Shown one piece after another: positions 7,065 to 35,029 of a DNA stretch of 64,000 nucleotides. A program made the position numbers and the translations under genes. Numbering within the stretch: the first letter of the stretch is position 1; the number at the start of each line of letters is the position of its first letter. The notes under the pieces are model-generated. The model was not told the origin of the DNA. It saw only the letters and a list, made by a program, of their open reading frames with translations, and did not search any database. Origin of the DNA: Eledone cirrhosa (Eukaryota); the NCBI GenBank assembly GCA_964016885.1, contig OZ024741.1, forward strand, positions 50,530,001 to 50,594,000, read 5' to 3'.

Positions 7065-7288
7065 AGCATTGTTGCAAAAAAAATTTTTCTGTTGGGGACA
7101 ACAAGTAATTATTTCATCAACCATCAAATGATAAAAAACAAAATCTATCGTAGAGGAATATAAACTTAAAATACAAAGTCTCATAACTGCACAGTATTTT
7201 GTCCAACACTAACAATTCTGCCAATTCACTGTTCTATATCTCAGATTTTAAATAACTAAGAAAAATAAAAAAAGAAATTTTCATTTAC

Positions 7289-7529
7289 CTGATAGTAAAT
7301 AGACATCAATGAGGTCTCCAAATCGACAGAAGCAGTCCCGCAGGATTAGTTCAGGGACAGCGGTAGGTTGACAGACTATAATAAGACGTTGACGAACAAC
7401 TGTGTCTTCAGACCGCAATGGTTGTGTACGAGGCAGACTGATGTTTGAGTAACGGACACGCTCTAAAACGTGTTCGTTTGCCAAAATACGCTCAGGATTG
7501 ATGCCAGCTTTCTCCAAAACCATTGCTGC
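7289..7529 (-). CDS. RBM45: RBM45 coding exon 10 (start of last RRM)
   Basis: AAMVLEKAG...VVRQRLIIVCQPTAVPELILRDCFCRFGDLIDVYLLS(G), cf. human [38 protein letters not shown]; tttcag and gtaaat boundaries. Confidence 0.92.
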
Positions 7530-7651
7530 CTGAAAGAGAGAATAACCCATCAATGTGTGTCATCAAATAAACATGGACAGGATAATTACCTTAAAGACAT
7601 CTACCGACATTCTACACTAAAGACAGTGTAACCATTGTTTACAAAATACAA

Positions 7652-10071
7652 AAACAAGGGAGTTCCTAAAAAATAATTTACTAGAGGCGACGGATGAGGT
7701 CTGTGGCTGGAGTAAGACCTCAAGCAGGAGGAGAGTGACTTGGTGGTAGAACAATAAGGTAGATGAAGCAGTTAAGGCCAAGAGACGGGCATGGAAAGAA
7801 TGGAAGAACAGGGGAGCAGGGTACATTACATAGAGACCAAGAGCGAAGCTAGGCGACAAGTATACTTAGCTAGGAGGGAAGCAGAGGATAGAAAATTCAA
7901 GCATGTTTTGCAACGTGAGGACCAGAAACAGGAGGTGTTCAAGATTGCGAGGCAGTGTGTCAGAGATAGTTGTGATGTCATTGGAGAGAAGTGTATCCGG
8001 AATGATAAAGGTGAGCTTTCCCTCACAAGTGCTGAGAAGAAAGATGCATGGAAGAGTCATTATGATAGATTACTAAATGAGGAGAATGCATGGGAAGAAG
8101 AGACCCTACCCCAAGTAGACCCTATAGAGGGGCCAGCAGTACAAGTCAGCAGCAATGTAATAAGTAAGGCAATCAAAGATACGAAGATGGGGAAGGCAAC
8201 CAGTCCATCGGGTATAGCTGCCGAGATGCTGAAGGCATCTGGGTCTGTAGGTCACACTATAACCACACGTATTGTTAACCAGGTAATACTAGAAGGTGTC
8301 ATACCAAAAGATTGGTGCAGTAGCATCATTGTCAACTGCTACAAAGGTAAAGGTGATGCACTAGATAGAGGAAACTATAGAGGTATAAAGTTGATGGGCC
8401 AGGTCATGAAAGTAACAGAAAGAGTTACAGCACAGTTGATTAGGGACCGGGTGAAAATAGACGAGATGCAATTTGGTTTGTACCAGGAAGAGGCACCACT
8501 GATGCCCTCTTCCTTGTGAGGCAGTTACAGGAAAAGTACCTAGCTAAAAGTAAGCCACTCTACTTGGCATTTGTCGACCTTGAGAAAGCCTTTGACAGAG
8601 TTCCACGTGCTGTAATCTGGTGGGCTCTTAGAAAACTAGGAGTAGATGAATGGCTTGTGAAAGCGGTACAAGCCATGTATAGGGGAGCAGTCAGCAAAGT
8701 TAGGATTAGCAATGAGTATAGCGAGGAATTTAGCGTACAGGTTGGGGTCCACCAGGGCTCTGTTCTTAGCCCCCTCCTGTTCATCATAGTCCTGCAGGCA
8801 ATAACGATGGCAATAGACTGGATGCCCATGGGAACTCCTGTATGCTGATGACCTCGCACTCATAGCTGAATCTATGGTAGAACTAGAGAATAAATTCCAA
8901 ACTTGGAAGCAGGGACTAGAAAGAAAGGGTCTCAAAGTCAACATGACAAAGACTAAGGTCCTTGTAAGTAGACGAGAACACAGAACCCAGATCCCCTCAG
9001 GGAAATGGCCTTGCTCAGTATGTAGGAAAGGTGTAGGTAGGAACTCCATTCTTTCCCCCAAATGCAAACAATGGGTACACAAGAGATGTAGCGGGATCTC
9101 AGGAAGCTTAATTAAGAATGTAGGCTTCACATGCACCAGCTGTGCTGGGACAGCAAGCAGCAAACAGCCACAGGAAACAAGTACCACCAATCTCTGGGAG
9201 GGCTCTGTAGAAACAGTAGACAGCTTCTGCTACCTAGGTGACCGAATTAGCAGCGGAGGTGGGTGTTCAGAAAGTACAATAACTAGGGTAAGAACGAGAT
9301 GGAAGAAGTTTAGGGAACTACTACCACTGTTAGCTGCAAAAGGCTTCTCCCTCAGAATGAAAAGCAGACTGTATGATGCGTGTATCCAAACAGCAATGTT
9401 GCATGGTAGTGAGACCTGGGCACTGAAGGTGGAAGACTTACGTAGATTAGAGAGAAACGAAGCCTGCATGCTCCGATGGATGTGTAACAGTAATATACGT
9501 GAACGACAAAGCATAAATGAATTGAGAGAGAGACTGAGCATAAGAGGAATCAAATGCTGTGTGCAGGAGAGGCGGTTGCGTTGGTATGGACATGTGATGC
9601 GTATGAAGGATGACAGCTGCATAAAAAGGTGCAGAGCACTAGAAGACCTGGGATGAGGTGATAAAAGCCGACCTTACCCAATTACACCTCTCAAAGGCAA
9701 TGACACACGACCGTGACCTCTGGCGTCACGCAGTAAAACAGAGTACCCGACCTCCCATGGGTACAAGCTGTAGCATATAGACAATATGCCCCCACACCCC
9801 CCACCGCAAGGTGGTCGTGGAGGTGCCACGGCAAAAAAGCACCCAACCCACACTGTAAAGTGGACGTGTAGGCGCCACGAAAAAGCACCCAGCACTCACT
9901 GTAAATGAGGTTGGTGTTAGGAAGGGCATCCAGCTGTAGAAATCAAGCCAAATCAGTTCCTGTATGAGCAAGGCATGGTCAGCCGACCAGACACTGCCCA
10001 CAACAGGACAACCCATCTAACCCATGCTAGCGTGGAAGAACAGACGTAAAACGGTGATGATGATGATGATG
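7652..10071 (+). mobile_element. RTE LINE family A, 5'-truncated, frameshifted
   Basis: ORFs 7791-8519, 8516-8848 and 8874-9656 give RT (FVDLEKAFDRV, GVHQGSVLSP, YADD) and the C-terminal domain; long 3' UTR ending in (GAT)n. Confidence 0.92.
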
Positions 10072-10419
10072 AATATAAGGGTGTCATTATTAAAAATTCT
10101 GTAAAAAAAATGTCTAAATCTTAATAACGATAGAAAAATGTGTGATCAACCATGCTAGAATTACCCCTCCCTCCCCCAAAATGGACATAGAAATCATCAT
10201 CATCATCACTGTTTTATGTCTTTTTCCACACTGGAATGTGTTGGATGGGTTGTCACAATCTGATATTACACAGTTCAGATGATCACATCTCCCTCATATG
10301 TTTCATTTTGACATGGATTCTACGGCTTGATGCCCTTTCTAATGTCTAACTACTTTACAGATTGTAGTAAATGTATTTTATCATGGAATTGACTATATTT
10401 TTGAGAAAAGACTGGGTGT

Positions 10420-10905
10420 ATTTTATATATATATGCTTTACACATGAGTTTTCCAGCACAGCTTTAGACATGAGTCTTGTCTTGTTAGCAGCACAGCTTT
10501 AGACATGTCTTGTTGACAGCACAGCTTTAGACATGAGTCTTGTCTTGTTGGCAGCACAGCTTTAGACATGAGTCTTGTTGACAGCACAGCTTTAGACATG
10601 AGTCTTGTTGGAAGCACAGCTTTAGACATGTGTATAGTCTTGTTGGCAGTACAAAAATGGTGTATTTTATATATATGCTTTAGACATGAGTCTTGTCTTG
10701 TTGGCAGCACAGCTTTAGACATGAGTCTTGTTGGAAGCACAGCTTTAGACATGTGTATAGTCTTGTTGGCAGTACAAAAATGGTGTATTTTATATATATG
10801 CTTTAGACATGAGTCTTATCTTGTTGGCAGCACAGCTTTAGACATGAGTCTAGTCTTGTTGGCAGCACAGCTTTAGACACGTGTATAGTCTTGTTGGCAG
10901 CACAG
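10420..10905. repeat. Composite 32-37-bp tandem repeat
   Basis: gcacagctttagacatgagtcttgt units; resumes at 16155-16210 on the far side of the Gypsy insertion. Confidence 0.9.
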
Positions 10906-11611
10906 ATTGTTGTGAGTGTATTTTATCATGGAATCAACTATATTTTACAGAGTAGACTGAGTTGTAACGCTCTCTAGACAGGGAAGTAGTTAGAGTTACT
11001 TCTCGTCGAAAGTCTAGAACCCTTTTTTGCAACTTCCGGAAAGAGGTTATAAATAGAGGCAACCAAGCCCGCTCTTCTTCTCTTTGGCACTTTCCTTCGA
11101 ACCTACAACACTGGAGATGAACATGTTAACCACGAGCTTGGACTAAACCTAAATATGCATGAGGATATTTTGTGTACCACGATTCTGACGGAGTTAAAAT
11201 AAAATGAAGACTTGTATTCGATATGGTGTTTTGTAAATATATCTTATCCTTTTCTGTATATAAATTAGTAGTTAGATTCTGGTGATATTTACTCAAGTAA
11301 ATAATCCTGGGTCTGACAGAACACTAAAATGGTGACCCGACGTACAGGAACACCAACTAAGAAAAAAAAATGATAATTCCCGGATACACCTCGTGTTTTC
11401 GTTTTCAACACAGCTTTCGCTTTTGTATCTGCCATTTTGCTTCCTCCGTATTACATCACTTCAGCAATTCATGCTACCACCACGTGCGTATATATATATT
11501 TTTGAAAATACAACTAATTTTCTTTCAAATGTGTTGTCATTGCCTGATTCACGGAAGTTAAACCACATGTGCGGCAGTTAAAAAACATTTCACCCAGCGA
11601 CTACTACATTC

Positions 11612-12376
11612 ATGATGAGTAATTCTTCGCTACCGACGTATTCAGGTGATGCAGAGTTGTGGTTTGCACAACTAGATTTGTATTTTGTTGCACATGGCGT
11701 CCAAATGGTACAACAGAGGTTACACGTGCTCATAAGCGGAATCCCTGCCTCGCTCGCCGTGTCAGTAAAGGATATCACCGATCCCCCACAAGGCGTCACT
11801 TACGAGACCCTTAAGGCAGAAGTGCTCAGACGGAACAGTCGTTCGTCTGAGAGCAAATTTTGTTCCTTGTTGGAGGAGGAAAACCTGGGAGATAGAACCC
11901 CGTCCCAGTTTTTTCGGCGCATCCGAGAACTGAGCGACTCAATGGCAGAGGATAACTCTTTCGTAAAACAATTATTCTTCTCCCGTTTTCCAACAAATGT
12001 GCAGACCATACTGGCAAATATAGTCGACACCAGTTCCTTGGACCAAATTGCAGCCTCAGCGGACCGCATAATGGAATTTTCTCGAGTACCCACTTCGGCA
12101 GATCCACACATTGCTTCTGCTACTTTTAAAGCACAGCCTGTTCCACCTCGTGAGGACTCTATATTGAGAGCCATTGACGTGCTAACTCGTCAAGTGACTA
12201 AACTGTGTCGAGAACGATCACATTCCAGATGGCATCCACGAAGTCGTTCTCCTTCTTTTCATCGTCGTGCCAAAACCCCCACCAACAACTCTTCTATATG
12301 TTGGTATCACGTGCGTTTTCGTGAAAAGGCGAATCATTGCATTCAACCCTGCTCTTTCGGGACTTCGGAAAACTAA
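11612..12376 (+). CDS. gag: Gag of the Gypsy element
   Basis: 254-aa ORF with WFAQ and LGDRTPSQF motifs and a C-terminal CWYH..F...A..C..PC (CHCC) motif typical of CsRn1-type gag. Confidence 0.85.
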   Translation: MMSNSSLPTYSGDAELWFAQLDLYFVAHGVQMVQQRLHVLISGIPASLAVSVKDITDPPQGVTYETLKAEVLRRNSRSSESKFCSLLEEENLGDRTPSQFFRRIRELSDSMAEDNSFVKQLFFSRFPTNVQTILANIVDTSSLDQIAASADRIMEFSRVPTSADPHIASATFKAQPVPPREDSILRAIDVLTRQVTKLCRERSHSRWHPRSRSPSFHRRAKTPTNNSSICWYHVRFREKANHCIQPCSFGTSEN

Positions 12377-12427
12377 ACCTGGAGAATCTGGGCACGGCAG
12401 ATCTCTCCTCCATTAATTCTCCTTATC

Positions 12428-15227
12428 GTGCCTTTTTTTTTTATAAAAGATCGAATTTCAAACAAATCGTTTATGGTCGACACAGGATCTAGCTGCAGTA
12501 TTTGGCCCCTTCGTTTCAGCTGTACCAAGCCAAATTTTTTCGGTATTTCCTTGTATGCAGTAAACCAGTCTCCTATAAAAACTTATGGACAAATATCTCT
12601 ATCATTGGACCTAGCTTTGCGTCGGGATTTCAAATGGATTTTCGTTGTAGCGGACCTACCGCACCCTATTCTCGGTGCGGATTTTTTACACCACTACTCA
12701 CTGTTAGTAGATGTCAGGAAACAGAAACTTGTGGATGGCACATCTTTATCTCCGCCTGCTCATAGTTCTACTGTTGCCATCACAAGTCCCGCGTGTTTCA
12801 TAGCTGCCTCTGGAAACCAGTTTCATTCTCTTCTTGCCTTGTTTCCCGAGTTAACTGACATTTCATTTAAACCGAACCAAGTAATCCTCTCGACTCGACA
12901 TTTTATTACAACAACTGCTCCACCTGTTTTTTCTCGGCCACGTAGGCTGGCTCCAGACAGACTAAAAAAAGCCAGGGATGAGATCGATCACATGCTTCAA
13001 ATTGGTTTTATACGACCGTCCACCAGCCCATGGGCATCCCCGCTTCATTTGGCTTGTAAGGGTGAAGCGGATTTTAGACCTGTGGGTGATTATAGACGAC
13101 TTAACGCTATCACAACACCTGATCGTTATCCTCTACCAAATTTACAGGATTTTTCATCCGCTCTGCATGGATGCAAGATATTTTCTAAAATAGATCTGGT
13201 ACGCGCTTACCATCAAATACCCATGCATCCGGAAGACATACCAAAAGCAGCTGTGACCACCCCTTTTGGTTCGTTTGAATTCCTATCCATGCCTTTTGGT
13301 TTGCGGAATGTTTCTAGTACATTCCAGCGTTTTATCGATGAAGTCATGCGTGGATTGGATTTCGTGTTTGCTTACGTTGATGATCTCCTCATAGCCAGCG
13401 ATTCGAATGATCATCATCATCAACATCTATCTCAGTTATTTCAACGTCTCCAATCGTACCAAGTGAGAATCAACCCAGCTAAATGTGTGTTTGGTGCAGA
13501 TTCACTGGAATTCCTCGGACACCTTATAGATTCAGAAGGCATTCGTCCTTTGCCAGCTAAAGTAGAGGCGATTCAGCAATTAGCACCACCAACATCCTTG
13601 AAACAATTACGCCACTTCCTAGGACTAATTAATTTTTATCGTCGCTTTATTCCTAACTGTGCGGACAAGTTATTCCCCTTGACACAGTTTTTAAGAGCTG
13701 CAAAAAAAGAAAGATGAAAAAATTTCACTTTCTGCCGATGCATTGCAGTCTTTTAAATCCGTCAAGTCTGAGCTAGCTAAAGTTTCTTTCCTTGCCCATC
13801 CTGTTGCAAATGCGAGACTTTCCTTATCTGTTGATGCATCTGATCGTGCTGTTGGCGCAGTTTTGCATCATGTAATCGATCATGAAGTTCAACCATTGGC
13901 ATTTTTCTCTCGCCGATTAAAACCAGCAGAACAGAGATATAGCACTTTTGACAGAGAACTTTTGGCGATTTATCTTGTCGTGAAGCATTCCCACCACCTT
14001 TTGGAGGGGCGGGAGTTCACGATATTCACGGACCACAAACCGTTAACATTCGCTTTACAATCCAAGTCAGACAAGTACTCTCCGAGAGTGTATAGACATC
14101 TGGATCTCATCTCACAGTATACCATTGATATCCTTCATATAGCTGGAATTTCCAACATACCCGCAGACGCACTATCTCAGCTTTCTGTGTGTTCTCTTGC
14201 GTCTCCTGCACATATCGATTTAGTTGCCATTGCAACTGACCAACCTACTTTGGATTCGTTGGACATTTCCTCTGACCAGTTCTCCTGCTGCAGATTGGAA
14301 TATTTACCTCTTCCATCTTCTGAAGGGAAAATTCTCTGCGATGTTTCTACTGGCTCACCCAGACCACTTGTTCCAGATTGTCATCAGCGTACCGTTTTTG
14401 ATGCACTTCATTCCTTGTCACATCCCGGCATAGCTGCCACGGTGAAGCTTATTACGGCTCGATTCTTCTGGCCTAATATGCGTCGTTTAATCACCGGTTG
14501 GGCACGTTCTTGTTTGATGTGTCAGCGCTATAAGATTCATCGGCATGTCTGCGCTCCTCTTGGGAAATTCAGCCCGCCTGACGCACGTTTCCGTCATATA
14601 CGCATGGATATTGTTGGTCCATGGCCCGTTAGTCGTGGATTCACATACATATTGACTTGTATCGATCGTTTCTCTCGGTGGCCTGAAGCCATACCCCTCA
14701 TGGACATAACACCCGAGTCCGTTGCCCGAGCTTTCATTTCCAATTGGATTGCTCGTTTTGGTGTTCCTACTAAAATAACTACGGATCGTGGACGCCAATT
14801 TGAGGCTTCCTTATTTCGTGAAATATCACGACACTTGGGTGCTCATCACATCCATACGACCAGCTATCACCCAGCCTCCAATGGAATGATAGAGAGGTTT
14901 CATAGGCAGTTGAAAGCTGCACTTCGCGCTACTCCTGATCCACAACGTTGGACTGAATTTTTGCCTATCGTGCTTCTTGGTTGTCGTGCTGCCATTAAGA
15001 CAGATTTAGGTTTTTCTTCTGCTGAACTTCTTTATGGTACCACATTGTCTCTTCCTGGACAAATGTTAGCACCAATGGATTCATCACATCTTGTCACCAG
15101 CATTCGTTCGTATTTCCCGGATCTTCCACCGATGAACCCTCATGACCAATCTATTTTGTCTGCTGTCCCATTGGACATCTCTACGTGGACACACATTTTC
15201 ATACAGAATGATTCCGTCACCTTATAA
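12428..15227 (+). pseudogene. pol: Pol (protease, RT, RNase H, integrase) split by a frameshift near 13702-13710; integrase C-terminus disrupted
   Basis: VDTGS protease, YVDD RT, DASD/FDRELLA/TDHKPL RNase H, HHCC and D-D-E integrase across ORFs 12428-13717 and 13743-15227. Confidence 0.9.
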
Positions 15228-16640
15228 TACGTGCTTTTGCACACACCCAAACATTTCACAGTGGCTGTCAATGGTCGGAAAGAGACAATATCCATTGACA
15301 GAGCAAAAAAAGGCTTTCTCCGAAAGTCTCATCACACTGCCTGATACACCTTGTACATACACTCCTACACCAACATTTTCACTTCCACCGCAAACACCAC
15401 ATACCACACCTTATGTCACACGATGTGGCAGGATGGTAAAATGGCCACGAAAACTCTCAAAAACAATATACATTTAAACCCCATGCATTAACATACCTTT
15501 TCTTTTTCAGTTTTCAGATAGAACTAGTGTCAGAAAAGTCTGTACACTAGTGTTGTATGAACTATTTGACTTTGAAAAACATTGATTTTACTATTGAGCA
15601 TCAATATTCTCTGCTCCTATGATTTATCATTCGTTACATTCAAACATTCTTTGTAAAAATGCATTACTTGTTTTATGCTCATTTTGCTATTTGCTTACTC
15701 ATGTTTTACTCATTCATGTTCTTGTACTTTTTGCCTTGTTCCTCATGTTCTCGCTACAATGATTTCATTTGGTCATTCGACTTCTCGTCTGAGAAGGGAG
15801 TCTTGTAGCACTCTCTAGACAGAGAAGTAGTTAGAGTTACTTCCCGTCGAAAGTCTTCCGGAAAGAGGTTATAAATAGAGGCAACCAAGCCCGCTCTTCT
15901 TCTCTTTGGCGCTTTCCTTCGAACTTACAACACTGGAGATGAACATGTTAACCACGAGCTTGGACTAAACCTAAATATGCATGAGGATATTTTGTGTACC
16001 ACGATTCTGACGGAGTTAAAATAAAATGAAGACTTGTATTCGATATGGTGTTTTGTAAATATATCTTATCCTTTTCTGTATAAAAATTAGTAGCTAGATT
16101 CTGGTGATATTTACTCAAGTAAATAATCCTGGGTCTGACAGAACACTAAAGAGTGTATTTTATACATATGCTTTAGACATGAGCCTTGTCTTGTTGGCAG
16201 TACAAAAATGGTGGGCTGATAAGAAGGCCCAGTCTTATCAAGTTAATACCTAACATACAGATATAAAGGAATGAAAGAGGCACAATGTATTTATTGTGCA
16301 TATATATATTGCATGTGTGTGTGTGTGCATATATATAATGAGTGCATGCGTCTTGGAACGTTTTTTTTGTTTAACCCTTTCATGACAGTGTTTCTAATGA
16401 AATAAACTATTTCAATTAATTTCTGAGGAATTTTGAAAGATTTACTAAAATTATTAATTATTGCCACATGTATTCTAGTTTGTAGAATAGATACACAATA
16501 TCTCTACTATGTGACACATGAGGAGACTAAAAGGGTTTCTGTGAGATAGGGCATCTGTTGTAAAACATTATCCCAAAACATCCCATGTGACTGTTAGCAT
16601 GGGAAAGTGGTTGTAAAAATATTGATAATGATAATACACA

Positions 16641-17316
16641 TACGAGGTGTTGAAAAAGTATCTCATTTTATTTTTCCCATGGGAAGTGGGAAGTAATGGA
16701 ATAAGGGAGACAAAAGTATGCAATGTGGAAATACATGCGTGGTTTTTGGCAAGTGTGTTGGATGTGCCAGGCAACAGGCATATGAGGTGTTGTTATTACT
16801 TGTCATGTTCTCATTTCACCCAATACTGCCAACAAGAATCCTGAGTTCTGTAAAACTGTGATAACTGGAGATGAGATGTGGAAGTACATCTAAAGCTCAA
16901 TTATCACAGTGGAAGTATTCAACATCACAAAGACCCTCCAAAAAGTAAGTCAGGTGTAAAGTAAACTCAAGGTGATGTTGATTGTTTTCTTCAACTACTG
17001 AAGTGTTTTGTATCATGTATACACACCAGAAAGACAATTACAAAAGAGTACTATCAGGAAATCTTCCAATCTCTTCATGATACAGTTTGGCACCAGAGAC
17101 CAGATCTTGCAAAACTGTCAATGGCATCATGGCAGACTGTGACAGCAGATCAGATAGCCATTTCAGAAGAAACATTCCAGACATGATTTGAACAGTGGGA
17201 GGATATGTTGACCGAGTGTGGGGAAGCACAAGGGACCTACTTCAAAGGGGATTAGCAATCCAACATCAAGTACATACTTTTCCCTCGGTCTAAATACTTT
17301 ATCAACAGACCTTGTG
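16641..17316 (+). mobile_element. Internally deleted mariner transposon
   Basis: Starts TACGAGG; ITGDExW, KVMLIVFF, KEYY and C-terminal TYFKGD* remnants; matching degenerate right TIR. Confidence 0.7.
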
Positions 17317-17394
17317 TGTGTGTACACACAGGCATAGCTGTCTGGTTAAGAAGTCACTTCAAAGTCACTTAAGTTTAATTGTACTGTATGGGAA

Positions 17395-17740
17395 TCATCA
17401 TCATCATCATCATTTTACGTCCGCTTTTCCCTGCTTGCAAGGGTGGTGGGACGGGAACTGATTCTGGCTTGATTTCTACAGCTGGATGCCCTTCCTAACA
17501 CCAACCTCATTTACAGTGAGTGCTGTGTGCTTTTTTTGCCATGTCACCTCCATGACCACTTTGTAGTGGAATGATATGGACCCCAGTCCCTATCATCTCA
17601 TTTCTACAGCTGAGTAAACTGGAGCAATGTGAAATAAAGTGTCTTGCTCAAGGAAACAACACATCACCCGGTCTGAGAATTGAACTCACAACCTTTCGAT
17701 TGCAAGGCCAATGCTCTAACCACTAAGCCATGTGCCTCCA
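17395..17740 (-). mobile_element. CORE-SINE copy
   Basis: Near identical to 1372-1712. A 5'-truncated plus-strand copy lies at 18050-18225. Confidence 0.85.
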
Positions 17741-18265
17741 TGGGAATAAAATTGAAATAAGTACTAGGGTTATTATGATTTACTAAATCCCTAAAAGATT
17801 GGGTGTTTCACCATGGCTAAGAATATACATGTACATGTACATACATATATATTAAAAATAGGAGAAAGTCAATGGAAAAACAAAAAAAAAGATGGTCAGT
17901 CTCATCTCTTCAGTCAACCTGGAAATCGCTACAGTTTTGGTGATTGAAGATTGATACTATTAATTTCAGTGCTAATTGGAACATAACAAAACAGGTAGAG
18001 ACAAGTTACGCCTTTAAACGAATTATACAAATATATATATATATATATGTCCTTATCATTCCACTGCAAAGTGGTCGTGGAGGTGCCACGGCAAAAAAAC
18101 ACCCAGCACTCACTATAAATGAGGTTGGTGTTAGGAAGGGCATCCAGCTGTAGAAATCAAGCCAGAATCAGTTCCCGTCCCACCCTTGCAAGCAGGGAAA
18201 AGCGGACGTAAAATGAAATGATGAATGAAATGATATGAAAGTAAGAATGAGATATTCAAACTGAC

Positions 18266-18332
18266 CTTCTTGAAAGTATCCTTTGGTGTTGATGTCCATA
18301 GTGGAGAACCTGCAACTGCACCCTCCATATAG
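18266..18332 (-). CDS. RBM45: RBM45 coding exon 9 (NAGNAG acceptor, alternative start 18335)
   Basis: Acceptor ttag/cag, YMEGAVAGSPLWTSTPKDTFKK, donor gtcagt; bridges the phase-2 end of exon 8 to the phase-0 start of exon 10. Confidence 0.75.
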
Positions 18333-18714
18333 CTGCTAACACAAAAGTATCACAAAATTACAGAAAATAGTGTTGGACTATGTTCAGTTACCTCCCCTTT
18401 TATGTTCTAGTTTTTACTTCTCATCCTCCCAGAGATCAATAAAATCTATAACAGTTATATACTGGTTGTCTATTTAATTGTCAATTTCGCTGTTTTATAA
18501 GCCATTATAGTAGCAGAGTGCTTTATGGTATGTAGTTATGTCCCTTTAAAATCTCATCTGTTACTATAGTAACACGTTTTGATACATATTACTAAATTAA
18601 AAACCACAAGTTGCTATGGTAACCACTATTATTCTGGCCAGCATAAACCAATAATTTGTTGATAACCCTCACCTCACCCCAACACTCCAGGGAGTCACTG
18701 ACTTCCAACAGTGT

Positions 18715-19140
18715 TACTTACAGAGACCAAAGTAGAGGTCAGTAGAAACAGGCAGTTCTCTCCAGCAGTCCTGGAGGCCTTGCAAAGGTCATAGGAGCTG
18801 ACCCTTACTTCTTACAGAAACCAAAGTAGACAGGCAGTTCTCTCCAGCAGTCCTGGAGGTCTTGCAAAGGTCATAGGAGCTGACCCTTACTTCTTACAGA
18901 AACCAAAGTAGACATGTGGTTCTCTCCAGCAGTCCTGGAGGCCTTGCAAAGGTCATAGGAGCTGACCCTTACTTCTTACAGAAACCAAAGTAGACAGGTA
19001 GTTCTCTCCAGCAGTCCTGGAGGCCTTGCAAAGGTCATAGGAGCTGACCCTTACTTCTTACAGAAACCAAAGTAGACAGGTGGTTCTCTCCAGCAGTCCT
19101 GGAGGCCTTGGAAAGGTCATAGGAGCTGACCCCTACTTCT
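18715..19140. repeat. 82-bp tandem repeat, about 5 units
   Basis: cccttacttcttacagaaacc recurs at 18802, 18884, 18966, 19048 and 19130. Confidence 0.93.
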
Positions 19141-19204
19141 TTTGACAAGTCATAAAAAAATACATAAATAGATAAAATAAAATATTGTCACTACACCTTT
19201 CACC

Positions 19205-19346
19205 GTTGCTATAGTAACTGCTGTAATACCTAGATATGTCACTGTTGCTATGGTAACTGCTGTAATACCTAGATATGTCACTGTTGCTATAGTAACTGCT
19301 GTAATACCTAGATATGTCACTGTTGCCATAATAACTGCTGTAATAC
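19205..19346. repeat. 39-bp tandem repeat, about 3.5 units, adjoining the exon 8 donor
   Basis: ctgttgctatagtaactgctgtaatacctagatatgtca units. Confidence 0.9.
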
Positions 19347-19350
19347 TTAC

Positions 19351-19501
19351 CCATCTCCGTAACCAATGTTCATGTCAACATTTGATGGTTGGTCTGCATA
19401 ACGGACATGTATTCGTGAACCTATAGGATACTCAAAGCCATCTAGTTTGTCTCTTGCATAGGCAGCAGCTTGTGGAGTACAGTACCTGGCATAAGCTATA
19501 C
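19351..19501 (-). CDS. RBM45: RBM45 coding exon 8 (RRM3), minimal form using the last of eight tandem acceptors
   Basis: (G)IAYARYCTPQAAAYARDKLDGFEYPIGSRIHVRYADQPSNVDMNIGYGD, cf. human [25 protein letters not shown]; donor GG|gtaagt. The 5' boundary is ambiguous (see findings). Confidence 0.85.
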
Positions 19502-19944
19502 CTGTAGTAGAAACAACATTATTACAGCTACTATCACAACCTCTGGTATAAGCTATACCTGTAGTAGAAATAACATTATTACAGCTACTATCACAACCTC
19601 TGGTATAAGCTATACCTGTAGTAGAAATAACATTATTACAGCTACTATCACAACCTCTGGTATAAGCTATACCTGTAGTAGAAATAACATTATTACAGCT
19701 ACTATCACAACCTCTGGTATAAGCTATACCTGTAGTAGAAATAACATTATTACAGCTACTATCACAACCTCTGGTATAAGCTATACCTGTAGTAGAAATA
19801 ACATTATTACAGCTACTATCACAACCTCTGGTATAAGCTATACCTGTAGTAGAAATAACATTATTACAGCTACTATCACAACCTCTGGTATAAGCTATAC
19901 CTGTAGTAGAAATAACATTATTACAGCTACTATCACAACCTCTG
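19485..19944. repeat. 57-bp tandem repeat, 8 units, spanning the RBM45 intron 7/exon 8 boundary
   Basis: Exon-start position recurs at 19501, 19558, 19615, 19672, 19729, 19786, 19843 and 19900. Confidence 0.96.
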
Positions 19945-19988
19945 ACATTAGTAGTACAAACATTATATAAGAACATTTTAATATTTAC

Positions 19989-20198
19989 CAGTATTTTCAT
20001 CAAGATCACAATATTCAAGACCTGGTACAAGGGTGAGGAGACGTGTAAGGTAAGACTGACTGAGACCCAGGGCCACAGTTAGATGTAGAAGTTGGTAGTT
20101 ATTGTGTGGGTAGTACTGGATAGAATCTAATGGACCCATACCTGATGAAGAACAGCCATCCGTGTTACCACCAACTCCACCACCACCTCTACCAGCAT
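19989..20198 (-). CDS. RBM45: RBM45 coding exon 7 (start of RRM3/HOA region); alternative in-frame acceptor at 20204
   Basis: AGRGGGGVGG...LLHLTVALGLSQSYLTRLLTLVPGLEYCDLDENT, cf. human IFDIVPGLEYCEV; donor G|gtaaat at 19988. Confidence 0.88.
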
Positions 20199-20561
20199 CT
20201 GAAACTAGAAAAAACAAACAATTTAAAACAATAATATTAATAAAAAAATAACATTACCAGAGAACATTATAGAAAATTGTGATCAGAAACAAACAAATAA
20301 ACAACTAAATGTGGTATATGTATGTGTGGTTATGTAGAAGTTCTCTTGCATGTATATATGTATGTATGTGTATGGTTATGTAGAAGTTCTCTTGTATATA
20401 TATGCATATATATGCATATGTATGTGTGTGGTTATGTAGTTCTCTTGCATGTACATGTGTGTATATATATATATTTAAGTGTAAGTGTATGTATGTATGT
20501 GTGATTATGTATAAGTTCCCTTGCATGTATATATGTGTGTATGTGTATGTAGTTATATAGA

Positions 20562-20825
20562 CCCAATCCGATCTGATCCAACCCATTTTGATACAATCTG
20601 AGCTGATCAGATCTGCCCCTAAGCAATTTGATCCAGCCTGATCCAGATTCAATCTAGATTGATCTAGTCTGATTTAATTCGATCCAGTTCAGTCTACTCC
20701 GATCTGGTCTGATCCAATCCAGTTCGATTCAACCTGGTCTGAAGCAATCTGATCCGAATTGATCCAGTCCAATCTGATCTGAATTGATCCAATCTGAACT
20801 AATCTGATTCCACCCAGTCTAATCG
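20562..20825. repeat. Degenerate 5-bp microsatellite (GATCC/GATCT/AATCT)
   Basis: About 50 imperfect pentamers. Confidence 0.85.
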
Positions 20826-20829
20826 CTCA

Positions 20830-23800
20830 AAGTAAAACCCAGCCATGAAAAGATAAGACTATAGGCACCTTAAAGGGTCACTCTAACGAGGTTGTAGAAA
20901 TGCTTGAACGTAAGGAGGTCGATGTTTGTTGTATTCAAGAGACCAGGTGGAGGGGTGGGTCTGCTAGATTCATCGTGGGTAAAGAACGATGCTATAAGCT
21001 TTTCTGGGTGGGAAATGACAATGGGCTGGGTGGAGTAGGAATCATGGTAGCAGAAAAGTGGGCAGATAAGATAATAGACGTAAATAGAGTGAACGACAGA
21101 ATAATTAAAATAAGACTTGTCCTCAATAGAACTACGGTGACAGTAATATCTGCGTACGCACCCCAATCCGGACTGCCCGGCACTATAAAAGACAGATTCT
21201 ATGAGACACTGATGCTCACTACCTCCCAAATAACCGACAGTGACTATATAATTATTGCAGGCGACCTAAATGGTCACATTGGACAACATTGTGACGGCTA
21301 TGACGGAATCCATGGAGGCTATGGGTTTGGTACTAGAAATGAGGAAGGCTCCAGAATCCTGGAATTCTGTGACGCAAATAACCTAACTATCTGTAACACT
21401 AACTTCAAAAAAACGAAACAATCACCTGATCACCTATAGATCGGGGGAACACACAAGCCAGGTAGATTATATCCTTACCAGGAGACGTGACAGAGTGTCT
21501 GTTGTAAACACTAAATCCCTTCCCCATGAAGAATGCACGTCTCAACATAGACTCATAATCAGCGACCTCATAGTCAGGACGAGACGTATTCGACAACAGA
21601 AGAGGACTATCCTCAGGAGAAAAATATGGAAATTAAAGGACCCCACAGCCAGTCATAAATTTAAAAGCATATTACTTGATGATTTTGATAGTAAGGAAGA
21701 GCAATTAGAGTCGTACAATATAGAGGAACAGTGGGAATTCCTGAAAGCTAACCTGCTGAAGGCGACAGATGAAACCTGTGGCTGGAGCAGGCCTATAGGC
21801 AGGAGGAGAGTAACTTGGTGGTGGAACAGTAAGGTGGAGAGGTCAATCAAGGCCAAAAAGCAGGCTTGGAAAGCATGGCGGGATGGGGGAAGTAGAGAAG
21901 ACTATCAAGTGGCCAGGAGGTAAGCTAGGAGACAAGTGTACTTCGCAAGAAGGGAAGCAGAGGAAAGAAAGTTCAAGCATGTTCTACAACGCATGTTCTA
22001 CAACGGCTGGGCCTTCGGAAATAGTTGCTGAAATGCTGAAAGCATCTGGAATGGTGGGACACACTATGGTCACCTGGATAGTAAACCAAGTCATACAGAA
22101 TGGGGTCGTTCCGAAGGACTGGCGCAGCAGCATCATCATTAACTGCTACAAGGGTAAAGGTGATGCCCTAGATAGGGGAAACTATAGAGGCATTAAATTA
22201 ATTGACCAGGTCATGAAGGTCACAGAAAAAGTAATAGCGCAACTAATCAGAGAGCGAATTGATCTAGACGAAATGCAGTTCGGGTTTGTGTCAGGTAAAA
22301 GTACAACAGACGCTCTTTTCATTGTACGACAACTACAGGAGAAGTACCTAGCTAAAAGTAAACCCCTATACTTAGCTTTTGTTGACTTGGAGAAAGCCTT
22401 TGACAGAGTACCCTGCTCGATTATCTGGTGGGCCCTTAGAAAACTAGGTGTTGATGAATGGCTTGTGAGAGCTATACAAGCCATGTATAAAGAAACAGCC
22501 AGCAAGGTTAGAATTAACAACGAATATAGTGAAGAGTTTAGCGTAAAAGTTGGTGTTCATCAGGGCTCCGTCCTTAGCCCCCTACTATTTATTATTGCCC
22601 TTCAGGCTATAACAGAGGAGTTCAAGACCGGCTGCCCATGGGAACTCCTATACGCAGATGATCTAACGCTCATAGCTGAATCAATGGCTGAACTACAGAA
22701 GAAATTCCAAACATGGAAGCATGGCCTAGAAACAAAAGGCCTTAAAGTTAACTTGTCTAAGACTAAAGTGCTAGTTTGTAGGAAGGAAAATAGGGCACCG
22801 GTCCCATCTGGGAAATGGCCATGCTCAGTGTGTAGGAAAGGAGTAGGTAGAAACTCCATTTTATGTCCCAAATGCAAAGTATGGGTACATAAAAGATGTA
22901 GTGGGATCACAGGTAAACTATCTAAGAATATAGATTTTATATGTGGCCGGTGCTCTGGTGCAATAAGTAGCAGCAAGTGCCCACAGAATACTAACTCGTT
23001 CCATTGCACAGATGGTTCTATAGAAATAGTGGACAGCTTCCGTTACCTGGGTGATAAAATCAGCAGTGGGGGAGGGTGCTCTGAAAGTACAGTAGCTAGG
23101 GTCAGAACGGGATGGAAAAAATTCAGAGAGCTTATACCACTATTGGCCGCTAAAGGGTTCTCTCTAAAAATGAAGGGCAGGCTGTATGATGCCTGCATAC
23201 GAACAGCAATGTTACATGGCAGTGAGACCTGGGCATTGTGTGCAGAGGATATACGCAGACTGGAGAGAAACGAAGCTTGCATGCTCCGCTGGATGTGTAA
23301 TAGTAACATACGTGAACGGCAAAGCATAAACGTACTAAGGGAGAAATTAGAAATAAAAGGGATCAGATGTTGTTTACTCGAGAGAAGACTACGTTGGTCT
23401 GGTCACGTGATGCGCATGAAAGACGACAGCTGTATAAAAAAGTGCAGGGCAATAAAAATAGACGGTAGCCACGGAGAAGGCAGACCCAGAAAAACCTGGA
23501 CGACTTGATAAATTCCGACCTCACACACTTACACCTCCCCAAGGCAATGTCACTGGACCGAGAGCTTTGGCGCTACACAGTAATAGAGAAGACCTGCCTT
23601 ACCTAAGTACAAAGTGAAACCTACTACAGTCAGTAGGCACCTAACAAAATACACCCCGTCCCACTACCCCCACCCCATCCACACCACCCCTTCAATGTAA
23701 AGTTATGTTGGTGTCACAACATCCAGCCCGAAACAAATGAGGTCGTGTAGGTGTCACGACAAAAAAAACACACAGTCCACGCTGTAATGTGGCCGTGTAG

Positions 23801-23995
23801 GCAACACGGTAAAAACCTCCCAGTTCCACACTGTAAATGGGGTTGGTGTTAGGAAAGGCATCCAGCCGGAGAAAACCCGCCAGACAGTCCTATGCGAGCA
23901 AGACAACCACTCTTGCCTCAAGTGGGAAAACCCCCGTCCAAACCCATGCAAGCGTGGAATATGGATGTTAAACGATGATGATGATGATGATGATG
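20830..23995 (+). mobile_element. RTE LINE family B, near full length with an internal deletion
   Basis: AP endonuclease ORF 20900-21439 (IQETRW, YAP, GDLNGH), RT ORF 21883-23508 (YADD), (GAT)n tail. Confidence 0.93.
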
Positions 23996-24369
23996 ATACA
24001 AGCTATATTTTGAATTAATTTTCCACACTTTCTCTTTCTCTTTTTGAGGTTCCGCATTCATTTATTTCAATTTCAATATTCAATAATTTTTAAATGCTTC
24101 TTCATCTTTCTCAACTAACTTCATGGCCCTATCAACACTATCTCACCCCACCGTCTCAATTCGTCCTAAACAAGCAAACAATACGCAGCACACCTGTCCT
24201 GTCTCTCTCAAAGGAAAACCTAGCTTATGGTTCTATTTTCTCCACATAACACTCACCCACATCCTATCCACCACCTTCTGGTTAGCTGTCATAGCTGACA
24301 TTACCTTGCACACCCCTCCATTTTCTCAACCGTCTGGCCTGTTGCTTTCTTCACCCACTCTGCTACATC

Positions 24370-27080
24370 ACCAAGGTCAGAAAAGACTGCACATGACAGA
24401 TGTGAACTCCATAGGTCATAATAAAGGCAACCCAGCTAGGAAAGTAGACACTCCAAATAAAAGAAAAACTGATATAAAGTGGAGAGGACTCTTGACTCCA
24501 GTAAGACAACCTCTCTAGTGCTGGTGGCATGAATAAAGCACCCAGTCCACACTATAAAGTGGTTAGTGGTAGGAAGGGCATCTAGCCAAAAAAACCTGAC
24601 AAAAATATGACAAACACAAATACGAATTTCACTGATTGCATATACAGGGCTAACACTAGTCATGTTAGTGCTTCAGACAGTAGTGGGGTGGTTAGAGTAG
24701 CCATGTGCGAGAACCCCTCAACTGTCATCAAGCAATTGCACAGGATTTCTCCCTTTCAGGTACATAGAACCTCTACACAAGTAAATAACAGCTACTGTCA
24801 AGATACAAATCTCAGGATTACCACCCTCAATGTTGGCACCCTGAAAGGTAAATCAGGTGAAATAGTAGAACTATTAGAGAGAAGAGAAGTAGATGTATGC
24901 TGTGTACAAGAAGTGAGATAGAAGGGTGCCTCTGCAAGACTAATCACAAGCAAACAACAGAGATATAAACTCTACTGGGTAGGAAATGATGATGGGGTAG
25001 GAGGTGTAGGCATCTTACTAGGTGAGAAGTGGGTTGATAAGGTGATAGAAGTAGTTAGAGTGACAGAATTATCAAGCTTAGAATAGTTGTAGGAAATAAA
25101 ATGGTGACAATTACATCTATCTATGTTCCATAGGCAGGACTAAATAAAGACCAAAAGGACATTCTATGAGGAACTTTTACAGACATCTTAGGTACTGATG
25201 AAAGAGATGTCATCAGCCTGGCAGGTGACTTCAATGGAGATGTGGGGCAGTATCAGGAAGGATTCTGTGGAGTTCACGGTGGCTATGGTTATGGCTCAAG
25301 AAAGAAGAGGGATTGAAGCTCCTGGAATTCTGTGATGCAAATGAACTAATCACCTGTATCACAAATTTCAGGAAACCAGCCAGCCACCTGATTTCATATC
25401 AATCAGGTGAACACACAAGCCAAATTGATTACTTACTCATAAGATAAGATAAACAAACTATAATAAACACTTTCCTGGTGTAGGCTCATGGCTTAGTGGT
25501 TAGAGCATTGGGCTTGCAAACGAAAGGTTGTGAGTTCGATTCTCGGACCGGGTGATGTGTTGTGTCCTTGAGCAAGACTCTTTATTTCATGTTGCTCCAG
25601 TTTACTCAACTGTAGAAATCAGTTGCAATCCTGCCAAATCAAAGGGTGGCAGTAGTTCCAGTTGCACGCATCAAAAGACTGGTGTAGTGGTTCTGAGAAC
25701 AATGCGGCTTTGCAGATGATCAATGAAAATTGACAATGGAAAGGTGCTCCTGATCGAGTTAGAAGAGAACTATTGACCTTCAGGAGAGGCAGCGACCCCT
25801 GATTGTATTCAGCAACTGAAACAAATATGAAGTACACCAAATCCAATGCTCCTAGTGGCGGCCCAGGTTCTTATTTGCGAGTGCAAACTCAGCCAGATTA
25901 GATTAGATTCCCAGTGGAAGAATGCACTGCCTAACACAAGTTAATTATTAGTGACACCAAAATAAACACAAGACAGAACAAGATATACAGGAAAATATGG
26001 AGACAGAGAGTTTGGAAACTAAGGGACCTCTAAGTTAAATATAAGTTTAGAAAGGCCCTACAGGATGCAGTAGATGAGATGGGTGATGAACTAGGTACAT
26101 ACAACATAGAGGACAATTGGAAATTCTTGTGTGACAACCTTTTGCAAACCACTGATGAGACTGTGGCTGGCGTAAAGCGCCAGCCAGACAGGGGTCACCT
26201 GGTGGTAGAACAGCACAGTGGATAGAGCCATTAAAGCCAAGAGACAGGCATGGAAAGACTAGAAAAAAAAAATGGGGATAGCAGAGACCTTGATCCCCTC
26301 AGGGAAGTGCCCCTGCTCCATATGTAGAAAAGGAGTAGGCATAAAGTCCATATGGAAGGATAACGGGTAGACTAACAGGAAACAAAGACTTTGTATGTAG
26401 AAGATGCACAGGAGTAATCAAGTGAAAGAATATCAGTAATGTAAACCTTTTCAAGTCACATGAAGGATCCATAGAAGTGGTTGATAGCTTCTGCTATCTA
26501 GGTGACTTAATTAGCAGCAGAGAGGGTGCTCTGAGAGCATAATAGCTAGAATAAGGAAAGGATAGAAGAATTTGGAGAGCTTCTCCCACTGTTGACAACA
26601 AAAAGTTTCTCCCTACATACAAAAGAATGACTGTATGATGCCTATATGCAAAGCGAGATGCTGCATGGTAATGAAACATGGGCAGTGACTGCAGAAGACA
26701 TGCGTAGACTGGAGAGAAATGAAGCAACCATGCTTTGTTGGATGTGTAATGTAAGTGTGAGAGAAAGGCAGAGCTTGGAAGAACTGAGGGAGAAACTGGG
26801 TTTAAGAGAAATCCAAGGCGGTATGCAGGAGAATAGACTGTGTTGGTACAGATATGTTATGCGCATGGATCATGACCGGGGGGTAAAGAAATGCCAGTGG
26901 AAGGAAGTCGCAGTAGAGGTAGACCAAGAAAGACCTGGACAGAGGTGGTAAGGGCCAACCTCAAATTGCTGAGACTTACAGAGGAAATGAAAGAACACAA
27001 CAAATGGAGAGATGCTGTACTGAGAAGGACCAAGCACAGAAAAATGGATGTAAAAACGATGATGATAATAATGATGATGG
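24370..27080 (+). mobile_element. Old RTE LINE (family C-like) with 5' UTR, endonuclease, internal deletion and short tail
   Basis: LRITTLNVGTLKGKSGEIVELLERREVDVCCVQEVR start; interrupted by a SINE at about 25484; RT C-terminus at 26460-27050. Confidence 0.82.
25484..25857 (+). mobile_element. CORE-SINE with a different tail, nested in an RTE
   Basis: Same tRNA head and CORE (25484-25620), then an unrelated tail; the RTE frame resumes at about 25908. Confidence 0.65.
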
Positions 27081-27284
27081 TGTGTATGCAGTTATGTACA
27101 AGTTCTATTGTATGTATATAAGTGTGTATGTAGTTATACAAATTTCCCTTGTATATATATATATATATATGTGTGTAAGTAAGTGTGTATCTAGTTATGT
27201 AGAATGTCCTTTGCCCTTTTGTCACACGTTTATTCAATACCAAAATATAATTGAAACAGTTGATCAGAAACTGGCTCTGCTTAC

Positions 27285-27407
27285 TTGGATATGGTGGCAT
27301 AGCTTCAGGAACTGGTGACCTAGAGCCACCTGCTCCACTGTACATATCATTGAATCTGAAACCTAAGCCATCACTTCTCCTCATCTCCTTGAAAGTACGT
27401 TTAACAC
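27285..27407 (-). CDS. RBM45: RBM45 coding exon 6 (linker)
   Basis: Long polypyrimidine tract + ctacag, (G)VKRTFKEMRRSDGLGFRFNDMYSGAGGSRSPVPEAMPPYP, donor gtaagc; 123 nt, phase 1-1. Confidence 0.78.
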
Positions 27408-27469
27408 CTGTAGAAAAAAAAAGAAAAAAAATCAAATACCACAAGTCTGAAAATAATTACTGATCATCA

Positions 27470-28370
27470 ATTCATCATCATTTTACGTCCGCTTTTCCCT
27501 GCTTGCAAGGGTGGGGTGGGTCCTATTCAGCACAGCATATCTCAACTTGTTACGGTCCTTCGTCATTTCCTCCGTGAGTTTCAGCAACCTGAGGTCTGCT
27601 CTCACCACCTCTGCCCATGTTTTTCGTGGTCTACCGCTACTGCGTCTTCCTTCTACTGGGATTTCTTGGCACTTCTTTACCCAGCGGTCATCGTCCATGC
27701 GCATCACATGTCCATACCATCTCAGTCTTCTCTCCTGTACTCCACAACTTATCCCTCTTATACCCAATTTCTTTCTCAACTCGTCTATGCTTGGTCGTTC
27801 ACACACATTGACATTGCACATCCAACAGAGCATGCTTGCTTCACTTCTCTCCAGCCATCGCATATCCTCTGCAGTTGCTGCCCATGTCTCACTACCATGC
27901 AGCATCGCACATCTCACACAGGCATCATATAACCATCCTTTCGTATGCAGGGAGAAACCCTTCTTTGTCAACAGAGGAAGCAGCTCACTAAACTTCTTCC
28001 AACCCATCCTTATTCTAGCTACTATGGCCTTGGAACACCCCCCTCCCATGCTAATCTGATCACTTAGGTACCGGAAGCTATCAACCACTTTTATAGAACC
28101 CACCCGCATTGGAAAAATGTGTCTATCACTGTGATTACTACTACAAACTTTCCATGTACATCTACTGCATACATAGTTTTCCCTACCTGTTAGTTTGCCT
28201 GCTATCCGCCTACATCTCTTGTGTACTCAAGATCTGTATTGCATACATTTTATGGAATTTATGCCAGTTCCTTTCCTACATATTGAACATGGCCATTTCC
28301 ATGATGGAGTCAGAGTATTGTCCTCTCTTCTACTTATCAACACTTTTGTCTTAGCTATGTTCATTCTCAA
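27470..28370 (-). mobile_element. RTE LINE family C, 3' part
   Basis: ORF 27483-28109 (MLHGSETW, RLRWYGHVMRM, GRPRKTW) runs right up to the (ATG)n tail; almost no 3' UTR. Confidence 0.9.
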
Positions 28371-29101
28371 TTATTATTTTTTATGTCTGCTTCTGCATGT
28401 TGCCATATTTTGGAGGAGAATTTTTGAAGCAGTATTCTGCAACAGAGTGACAGCCCAATACCTGTTTTAAGTAGGGGAAGAGTGGTAAGAAAGTTAGATA
28501 AAATGTTTGCCGTTATCATTTCGATTCACTGCTCTCTGAGGTTAAATCCCACTGAAGTCAAGTTTGCCTTTCATCCATTTGAGGCTGATAAAAAAAGTAC
28601 CAGCTTAGTATTGAGGGTTGATTCTTCCTCCATGTCTCTTTCTCACTTCCATTCTCTCACTCTCTAACTTTCTTTGGAAGAAATCTACCGTATTCGGACT
28701 TGGAGAAGAAGTGGGCTATGCCAGATTTTAAAATGCCCTAAAAATGCCATATGTCACTATGGTGCCCCTGGGACTCCTTCAGTGCATTTGACATGCATTG
28801 ACTTGTCAAACTAGTGAGTAGCAGAACATAAATGCCACCAACTGAACAAACAGTGGTCAAATGCAAAGTAAAGACCACTTGAACTAACAGTGGTCAAAAC
28901 CAAAGTAAAGACCACCTGAACTAACAGTGGTCAAATGAAAAGTAAAGACAAAATGCATGGAGACTCACACACATATATACCATAATTTAAAAACTATTTC
29001 CTTGACTAGAAAATGTTGGACAGGCCATTACAGACCAAGTCAATACTTAATTGGAGTTACTAACCTCTTAGATAGGCTAGGACTTGTATCACATGTTCCT
29101 G

Positions 29102-29665
29102 CACTAGCTCCATTTCATTGTGACACCAGCACTAGGTTCATTTCATTTTAACACCAGTACTGGCTCCATTTTATTGTGACACCAACACTAGCTCCATTTC
29201 ATTGTAATACCAGCACTAGGTTCATTTCATTGTAACAGCAGCATTAGCTCCATTTCATTTACACCAGCACTAGGTTCCATTTCATTGTGACACCAGCACT
29301 AGGTTCATTTCATTGTGACACCAGCACTAGCTCCATTTCATTGTGACACCAGCACTAGCTCCATTTCATTGTGACACCAGCACTAGCTCCATTTCATTGT
29401 GACACCAGCACTAGCTTCATTTCATTGTGACACCAGCACTAGCTCCATTTCATTGTGACACCAGCACTAGCTCCATTTCATTGTGACACCAGCACTAGCT
29501 TCATTTCATTGTGACACCAGCACTAGCTCCATTTCATTGTGACACCAGCACTAGCTCCATTTCATTGTGACACCAGCACTAGCTTCATTTCATTGTGACA
29601 CCAGCACTAGCTCCATTTCATTGTGACACCAGCACTAGCTCCATTTCATTGACACCAGCACTAGG
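29102..29665. repeat. 28-bp minisatellite, about 20 units
   Basis: cactagctccatttcattgtgacaccag units. Confidence 0.95.
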
Positions 29666-29909
29666 GAGTTGTCATGTCTGGAGAGACCTCATGACCCTAT
29701 GTTTAACATGTTTTCTAATCTACATTTTTCAGAGTGAACTAGAGTGGTTGTTGTGCTATAAATGAAGGGTCCTATCAACCCTATTTGGCATGGGTTCTAC
29801 AAGTGGATGCCCTTCCTAACAGTAACCATTTTACAGAGTGTATTGGGTGCATAAATATCACCAGCTTTTCACAAAGTGCTAATCAATAAAGCATGTTAGT
29901 ACAACATAC

Positions 29910-30029
29910 CTTGGTCCCTATAATCGTAGTTGTCACCACCACTTCCACCATCTTCCCCTCCATCACTATTGTGTTCATATTCTTTTTCTTGACGAGAAAC
30001 TTTGGGTTCAGCGAACCTGGGCCTGAACA
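29910..30029 (-). CDS. RBM45: RBM45 coding exon 5 (end of RRM2, Gly-rich linker)
   Basis: (V)FRPRFAEPKVSRQEKEYEHNSDGGEDGGSGGDNYDYRDQ, cf. human FRAILAEPK; ag and gtatgt boundaries, phase 1-1. Confidence 0.88.
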
Positions 30030-30270
30030 CTTTGTAATATAGAGAAATGGAAATAATGACACATAAAAGATATGAAAAATTATTGACTTGATTAATAAAG
30101 GATGTAGACTATTATGTGACTGACAGAGAGACCTCTGTATGACAAACACAGACCACTGTTATGTAGTTCATAAACAACACCACTTGCTTTAATTTTGAAT
30201 ATGAAGATATGGAGAGAGACAGACATGCACATATATATATAATATATAATATATATATATATATATATAA

Positions 30271-30612
30271 ATCATCATCATCATTTCATTTTACGTCCAC
30301 TTTTCCCTGCTTGCAAGGGTGGGACGGGAACTGATTCTGGCTTGATTTCTACAGCTAGATGCCCTTCCTAACACCAACCTCATTTACAGTGAGTGCTGGG
30401 TGCTTTTTTGCCGTGGCACCTCCACGACCACTTTGCAGTGGAATGATAGGGACCCCAGTCTCTATCATCTCATTTCTACAGCTGAGTAAACTGGAGCAAT
30501 GTGAAATAAAGTGTCTTGCTCAAGGAAACAACACATCACCCGGTCTGAGAATTGAACTCACAACCTTTTGATTGCAAGGCCAATGCTCTAACCACTAAGC
30601 CATGTGCCTCCA
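30271..30612 (-). mobile_element. CORE-SINE copy
   Basis: Near identical to 1372-1712; tail abuts (TA)n. Confidence 0.85.
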
Positions 30613-30821
30613 TCTAATAGTGTAGATCTGTCTATCAAATTTACTGACAAAGTATTGGTTGGTCAGAGTCTTCAGTAGAAAGTATTAACTTAAGGTGATA
30701 TGCTGCAGTGGGATTAAACTTGAACCTAGTTTGTTACAAACTGAACTTCTTAACCACAAAACCATGTCAATACTTTTATGATTAAATCATATAAAAAAGA
30801 AGAGTCAACTAAGACACATAC

Positions 30822-30936
30822 CTGGGTCACATGACTCAAAAGCCAGTGCAGCATGGTAAGGGCGGTAGAATTGAACATAACCAAATCCAGATTTCCAACC
30901 ATTCAAGACAGTTACAGACTTAATTTCTCCAAATTT
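30822..30936 (-). CDS. RBM45: RBM45 coding exon 4 (RRM2)
   Basis: Acceptor ttttcag, KFGEIKSVTVLNGWKSGFGYVQFYRPYHAALAFESCDP, donor gtatgt; RNP1 motif GFGYVQF. Confidence 0.9.
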
Positions 30937-31049
30937 CTGAAAATAATTAAAAGTATACACAGTAGCTATGAGATTAAAGATGAGAGGAAGAGGAGGAGAC
31001 GATGACGAGGCCGCCTATGGACTACTCCAATGACAGATGACAGTGAACT

Positions 31050-35017: not shown

Positions 35018-35029
35018 CTGAAATATACA

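Follow-up and report, generated by a model that had tools for sequence, protein, structure and literature searches.

The window analysed here, a 64,000-nucleotide stretch of the Eledone cirrhosa genome, contains a complete RBM45 gene on its minus strand (5753..40985). With 8,000 candidates scored, the best named protein match of this gene is an Argonauta hians RBM45-like protein, and its gene model comprises 11 coding exons, GT-AG introns throughout and an intact 528-aa open reading frame; the gene identity and exon numbering given in the initial annotation are borne out by this match and model. DNA and protein searches of the species' own genome revealed a second complete RBM45 locus ~465 kb from the first and inverted relative to it (G000 C2:50,053,147-50,093,084, plus strand, 553 aa), and the protein search recovered the full exon set at both loci. 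We refer to this second locus as copy A and to the window gene as copy B. Identity to the Argonauta protein is 439/511 for copy A and 380/503 for copy B. When changes are polarised by Argonauta, 60 amino-acid differences are private to copy B and 7 to copy A; dN/dS between the two copies is 0.084/0.115 over 526 codons. Exons 1 and 4 of copy B have further undergone short deletions, and its Gly tract in exon 5 is shorter. Judged from these sequence comparisons, copy B is the fast-evolving paralog and copy A the conserved one. With copy-B exon 7 as the query, the Argonauta protein was the one match in a set of 18 candidates, and no database protein of copy B was found.

The surroundings of the two genes differ in several further respects. 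Because a 21-bp array lies downstream of both copies (82 units at 2076-3796 in the window; more than 5.4 kb beside copy A, L006 4518-10000), the duplicated segment reaches past the gene. Intron 9 of copy B holds ~5 kb that begin and end in long direct repeats (~10970-16150), missing from copy A, which by eye looks like an LTR retrotransposon. The same intron carries a 35-bp array of 62 units in copy A (L005 7694-9793) versus ~7-10 related units in copy B (10454-10905). Outside this lineage, Babylonia areolata has two RBM45-like proteins (P0022, P0029) in separate clusters, and RBM45 duplicates may therefore not be unique to the lineage studied here.

Where intron 7 of copy B meets exon 8, the boundary itself is reiterated as a minisatellite (19486..19944, minus strand), for which Tandem Repeats Finder (TRF) reports a period of 57 bp, 8.1 copies and 99% matches. 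Each unit consists of the last 41 nt of intron 7 and the first 16 nt of exon 8, as initially annotated and as the unit listing bears out, and CAG/GT is present in 8/8 units. The first exonic bases of the eight resulting acceptors lie at 19900, 19843, 19786, 19729, 19672, 19615, 19558 and 19501, with a spacing of 57. Only the eighth unit continues into exon 8, which from this last, authentic acceptor is 151 nt long (19351..19501, minus strand; 0/151 differences from copy A); units 1-7 carry, at nt 12 of the exon part, a single G>A change. The donor of exon 7 is at 19988 on the minus strand. Intron 7 of copy B is thus 487 nt long as removed with the last acceptor (19502..19988, minus strand) and 88 nt long with the first, and these coordinates agree with the 88-nt distance noted at the outset. 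The seven upstream units (19502..19900, minus strand; acceptors 19900 to 19558) are decoys that are skipped in the spliced contigs of copy A and of a relative; they are in frame, and each would add 19 aa if used. The array translates in the exon frame as RGCDSSCNNVISTTGIAYT, free of stops. TRF, the acceptor positions and the unit listing together uphold the description of eight in-frame, stop-free 57-bp units. Because a unit that is both in frame and stop-free arises by chance in ~9% of cases (0.27 x 1/3, with the intron part shuffled 20,000 times), these two properties are weak evidence for coding use.

We then asked how the array compares with sequencing data and with the rest of the genome. 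Across the 3.0-Gb assembly, a 20-nt acceptor motif has 12 occurrences, of which 8 are in the window array and 4 in copy A; a reversed control has 0. Between the two copies, exons 8-9 with their introns show ~99% identity, as collapsed or mis-polished repeats can, and on this ground the array or the second gene copy could be taken for an assembly artefact. We find that reading scarcely credible. Among the runs compared (X1, X2, X5, X6, X7, X11 and X13, 7 of the 17 listed), run X2 has, at depth 76.2, a loop contig that is exact over its 87 nt (57+30), and the identical exact loop recurs at depth 3.9 in run X6, which belongs to a different study and carries a different organism label. Further, a contig at depth 5.5 in X2 leads from the array into a decayed unit specific to copy A, so that the run contains copy A's own junction into the array. 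The ratio of loop depth to junction-contig depth in X2 is 13.9, and the assembly predicts 10.1, with depth serving as a rough guide and X2 possibly close to the assembly's source; another X2 contig, at depth 4.1, did not qualify as a single-copy yardstick, with a match of only 35 nt and unlike sequence on both sides. Exons 1-6 of the two gene copies are just 83-96% identical, and each copy has its own spliced contigs in run X1. The tandem loop was thus recovered in contigs of unassembled runs from two studies, which confirms that the array is genuine and disposes of the concern that the raw data might hold a single unit.

Copy A shares the array in a shorter form. Its intron 7 is 3,237 nt long and terminates in four acceptors of the 57-bp unit, identical over 26 bases at the intron end and 11 at the exon start, against eight acceptors in copy B. 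The proposal that copy number might vary holds between the two gene copies. Exon identity between the copies is 83-96% for exons 1-6 and 96% for exon 7, and exons 8-9 show 0/221 differences; the tract common to both copies has 17 mismatches in 1,418 aligned nt (~99% identical), and the part of it in the window lies at 18230..19660 (minus strand, A/B alignment). This near-identity over the array and exons 8-9 probably reflects gene conversion between the inverted paralogs, which would have given both gene copies the array. Ordinary minisatellite turnover would then account for the changed copy number; consistent with such turnover, neighbouring arrays differ between the copies too, as in the intron 8 minisatellite with an 82-bp unit (18748-19141), present in 4.8 copies in B and 5.7 in A. 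Intron 8 of copy B also holds a 39-bp minisatellite of 3.8 copies (19200-19346), which starts 4 nt after the exon 8 donor and whose unit junctions form AG/GT. Upstream of the four acceptors, copy A has a further 61-nt duplicate of the exon 8 boundary that is older and decayed (L005 4488-4548); its frame is broken and reaches a stop, it is ~75% alike over 32 nt by eye, and its junction is confirmed by run X2.

The first duplication may have left a trace at the 5′ edge of the window array, where ATGTCAG (19941..19947, minus strand) matches at 6/7 positions ATGCCAG, nt 10-16 of exon 8. Slippage between these two words would likely have produced the first 57-nt duplicate, with the microhomology role proposed from the letters themselves. 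An ancestral 88-nt intron 7, as first suggested, plausibly fits this microhomology; a deletion in copy B that ended in such a unit would fit equally, and intron 7 of copy A is 3,237 nt long.

Similar sequences were found in a related organism. In run X5 (organism B), which has no cover of exon 7, unit-like contigs occur at depths of 93.5-367.9 versus 43.4 for exon 8, and the exon 8 contig begins 18 nt upstream of the acceptor, at the point where a branch is predicted for a duplicated boundary. This related organism has a similar array. Its units carry 3-nt TGT insertions that expand an existing TGT triplet, and one unit variant has the ATGTCAG form; both indel types seen are 3 nt and keep the frame. 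Runs X11 and X13 cover exon 8 and leave the array uncovered, a gap that carries no weight as evidence. By way of a weak hint, a contig in run X13 runs unbroken 25 letters beyond its match, as expected if that organism is without a recent duplicate.

To determine which acceptor is spliced, we turned to contigs that join exon 7 to exon 8. Run X1 carries the same species label and was taken as RNA from its spliced joins; run X7 is from another organism and was taken as RNA by guess. In X1, one 820-nt contig at depth 61.9 passes unbroken across a 487-nt skip between donor 19988 and acceptor 19501, the last one. Its 6 exon 7 differences from the window are the 6 A-versus-B differences there, with two listed sites matching copy A; by its letters, the X1 join belongs to copy A, in which three identical decoys and the decayed unit are skipped. 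The X7 contig likewise joins exon 7 to the last acceptor. Use of more than one acceptor was not found: 2/2 runs with spliced contigs show this single join, for copy A and for a relative, in evidence that consists of contigs, which drop rare forms, and includes a single same-species run. The initial annotation had envisaged a ladder of acceptor use in steps of one unit; both runs instead reach the last acceptor, and no protein bearing the repeat was found.

The last unit was initially set apart by a U/G-richer tract. The variant exists, as a single A>G change, and is missing from the last acceptor of copy A, which nevertheless is the site used; the G variant is thereby ruled out as the selector of the site. 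Because the four acceptors of copy A are identical, the choice rests on downstream sequence and not on the acceptor itself. Putatively, the last site wins because the decoys have only 16 nt of exon sequence behind them and the last acceptor has the whole 151-nt exon, and exon definition would pair the exon 8 donor with the nearest acceptor, which is the last one. We therefore favour, with a probability of roughly 80%, the reading that the array is a near-neutral intronic minisatellite with only the last acceptor in the spliced RNA seen, a usage observed for copy A and a relative and extended by us to copy B.

That extension faces one specific objection. Only 88 nt separate the donor of copy B from its first acceptor, a distance at which intron definition could act in that acceptor's favour. 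Copy B is transcribed: an X1 contig at depth 6.3 shows 0 differences from B across 20129-20204 and extends into exon 6 of that copy. In this contig, exon 7 of copy B (19989..20204, minus strand) joins exon 6 at an AG 6 nt upstream of the site used in copy A, a newly made AG at 20199-20206 that lengthens the transcript by 2 codons. This choice at intron 6 in copy B transcripts means that upstream sites are able to prevail in this gene. If copy B, unlike copy A, often used upstream acceptors of the array, 19-133 extra Cys-bearing residues would enter its protein, and the exons so formed would measure 208-550 nt.

Where such residues would go was examined on the Argonauta protein as modelled by AlphaFold (alignment of 57 sequences, pLDDT >90 in the third RRM fold). 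In this model strand beta2 spans residues 294-300 and beta3 spans 305-310, and the exon 7/8 junction, at residue 304, is predicted to fall in the turn that leads into beta3 of the third RRM fold. The model contains four RRM-type strand-helix patterns, as expected for three RRMs and a middle pseudo-RRM known as HOA, for homo-oligomer assembly. By domain order in the relevant part of PMC11402289, we infer that the third RRM fold is this middle pseudo-RRM, equivalent to the human HOA self-association domain; in the same part of that source, the name RRM3 is reserved to the C-terminal domain of RBM45. Of the earlier statement that the insertion would lie within RRM3, the insertion point is thus supported by the model and the domain name is not. 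The beta2-beta3 turn has a standard 14-residue span in 34/57 aligned homologs and a maximum of 22. Because it reaches at most 22 residues among the 57, even a single unit (+19) would lie outside the range seen.

Upstream use in copy B draws some plausibility from the 88-nt first intron, from units that are stop-free and in frame, from an insertion site in a turn whose length differs by as many as 8 residues between homologs, from the transcription and fast evolution of copy B (60 private changes versus 7), and from the 3-nt indels in the units of the related organism. We consider it unlikely all the same. The only joins seen reach the last acceptor, the chance of an in-frame, stop-free unit is ~9%, and the repeat is absent from the proteins searched. 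In X1, 0/4 aligned contig records lie on the array, and the loop is kept in X2 and X6 (in X6 at depth 3.9), a weak argument, since pieces of this sort may be lost from contigs; with acceptor 1 in use, each loop word would stand ~6.3 times per transcript, and acceptor 7 alone (+19 aa) would give no complete loop. A stronger version of this proposal would make the array of copy B a variable-length coding cassette in some tissues, with copy number and acceptor choice setting the number of 19-residue, two-cysteine units in the oligomerisation domain and the frame kept by selection; we regard this as quite improbable.

A phmmer search of the 133-aa repeat against 1.84 billion representatives gave 33 matches with identity of at most 50% and a longest exact match of 6 aa, none of them with the repeat; on inspection of 5, they look like unrelated repeat proteins. 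The search of proteomes for the repeat peptide, advised in the initial annotation, thus yielded no carrier among these representatives. In the protein search with 8,000 candidates scored, the repeat was absent from the sequences of all 5 matches. In the closest unnamed protein cluster, 4/5 members cross the exon 7/8 junction without an insertion, and the fifth did not fit the pattern. Tetrapeptide matches among the aligned homologs were treated as chance.

The AG/GT at every unit also admits a route by which the array would be removed stepwise through recursive splicing, with an end product identical to the observed join and the same mature mRNA as direct splicing. We rate this route very unlikely. 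The rebuilt donor has 5/9 consensus matches by simple count and is without the +5 G that 8/10 real donors of this gene possess; the same donor-like junction in the mature mRNA is not used for skipping exon 8; and the 57-nt unit is shorter than the ~60-nt minimum intron given for human cells in the portion of PMC3265369 consulted. Recursion, suggested early on, is unnecessary for the observed join. Intron gain by tandem duplication at these AG/GT sites, raised alongside it, was ruled out, as no new exon was seen.

The near-neutral minisatellite favoured here has close counterparts in other animals. In amphioxus, the relevant part of one report describes a "mirage" minisatellite in the globin gene BflGb6 that repeats an intron end and the following exon start in tandem, with 6 versus 3 units between haplotypes and a normal mRNA by RT-PCR (PMC3087553), and further mirages are described, likewise in part of a report, for Adh3, troponin C and PGBD5 (PMC3902484). 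The RBM45 array shares with them four features: a unit that spans the 3′ end of an intron and the start of the next exon, AG/GT signals, copy-number instability (here between gene copies) and mRNA made at the authentic site (here copy A and X7). Unlike the amphioxus arrays, as far as those sections describe them, it lies in a mollusc, its units keep the frame, contain no stop and are 99% identical, two inverted paralogs have it in common, and a related organism has a similar one. The RBM45 array is most likely a mirage minisatellite, of the kind known from amphioxus, that is spliced out.

Human genes offer partial parallels, each taken from a portion of the source cited. In CBS 844ins68 an intron 7/exon 8 junction is likewise duplicated, and the distal site is strongly favoured and gives normal mRNA (PMC2630376); that allele is a polymorphism with one extra 68-bp copy, in contrast to the array of 4-8 in RBM45. 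Boundary VNTRs in F7 IVS7 (37 bp), 6-16, CBS IVS13, LAMIN B2 and PDGF also have an identical splice site reiterated by a minisatellite, and usually only the site beside the intact exon is used, with one or two extra sites in use in 6-16 and CBS IVS13 (PMC1557585); these arrays repeat donors, unlike the acceptors of RBM45. The Rogers model, exemplified by ATP2A1, similarly invokes a tandem duplication with AG/GT, from a site inside an exon to a new intron, whereas in RBM45 an existing acceptor is copied with no new exon or intron seen (PMC3265369). A report of the array or of an RBM45 paralog in cephalopods was not found in the open literature, the scope of which excluded subscription journals and preprint supplements, and in which two preprints on Rbm45 evolution were the only papers listed; the main text of one of them mentions neither duplication nor paralogs.

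The RBM45 array is a natural test of 3′ splice-site choice, in which identical acceptors stand behind a 3.2-kb intron and an 88-nt intron in one nucleus, and the two paralogs allow exon definition to be compared with intron definition. As a side result, the species has a complete, transcribed and fast-evolving second RBM45 whose exons 8-9 are identical to those of the conserved copy. If the upstream acceptors of copy B were used after all, a minisatellite would be adjusting the domain through which an ALS-linked family of RNA-binding proteins self-associates, which would be notable.
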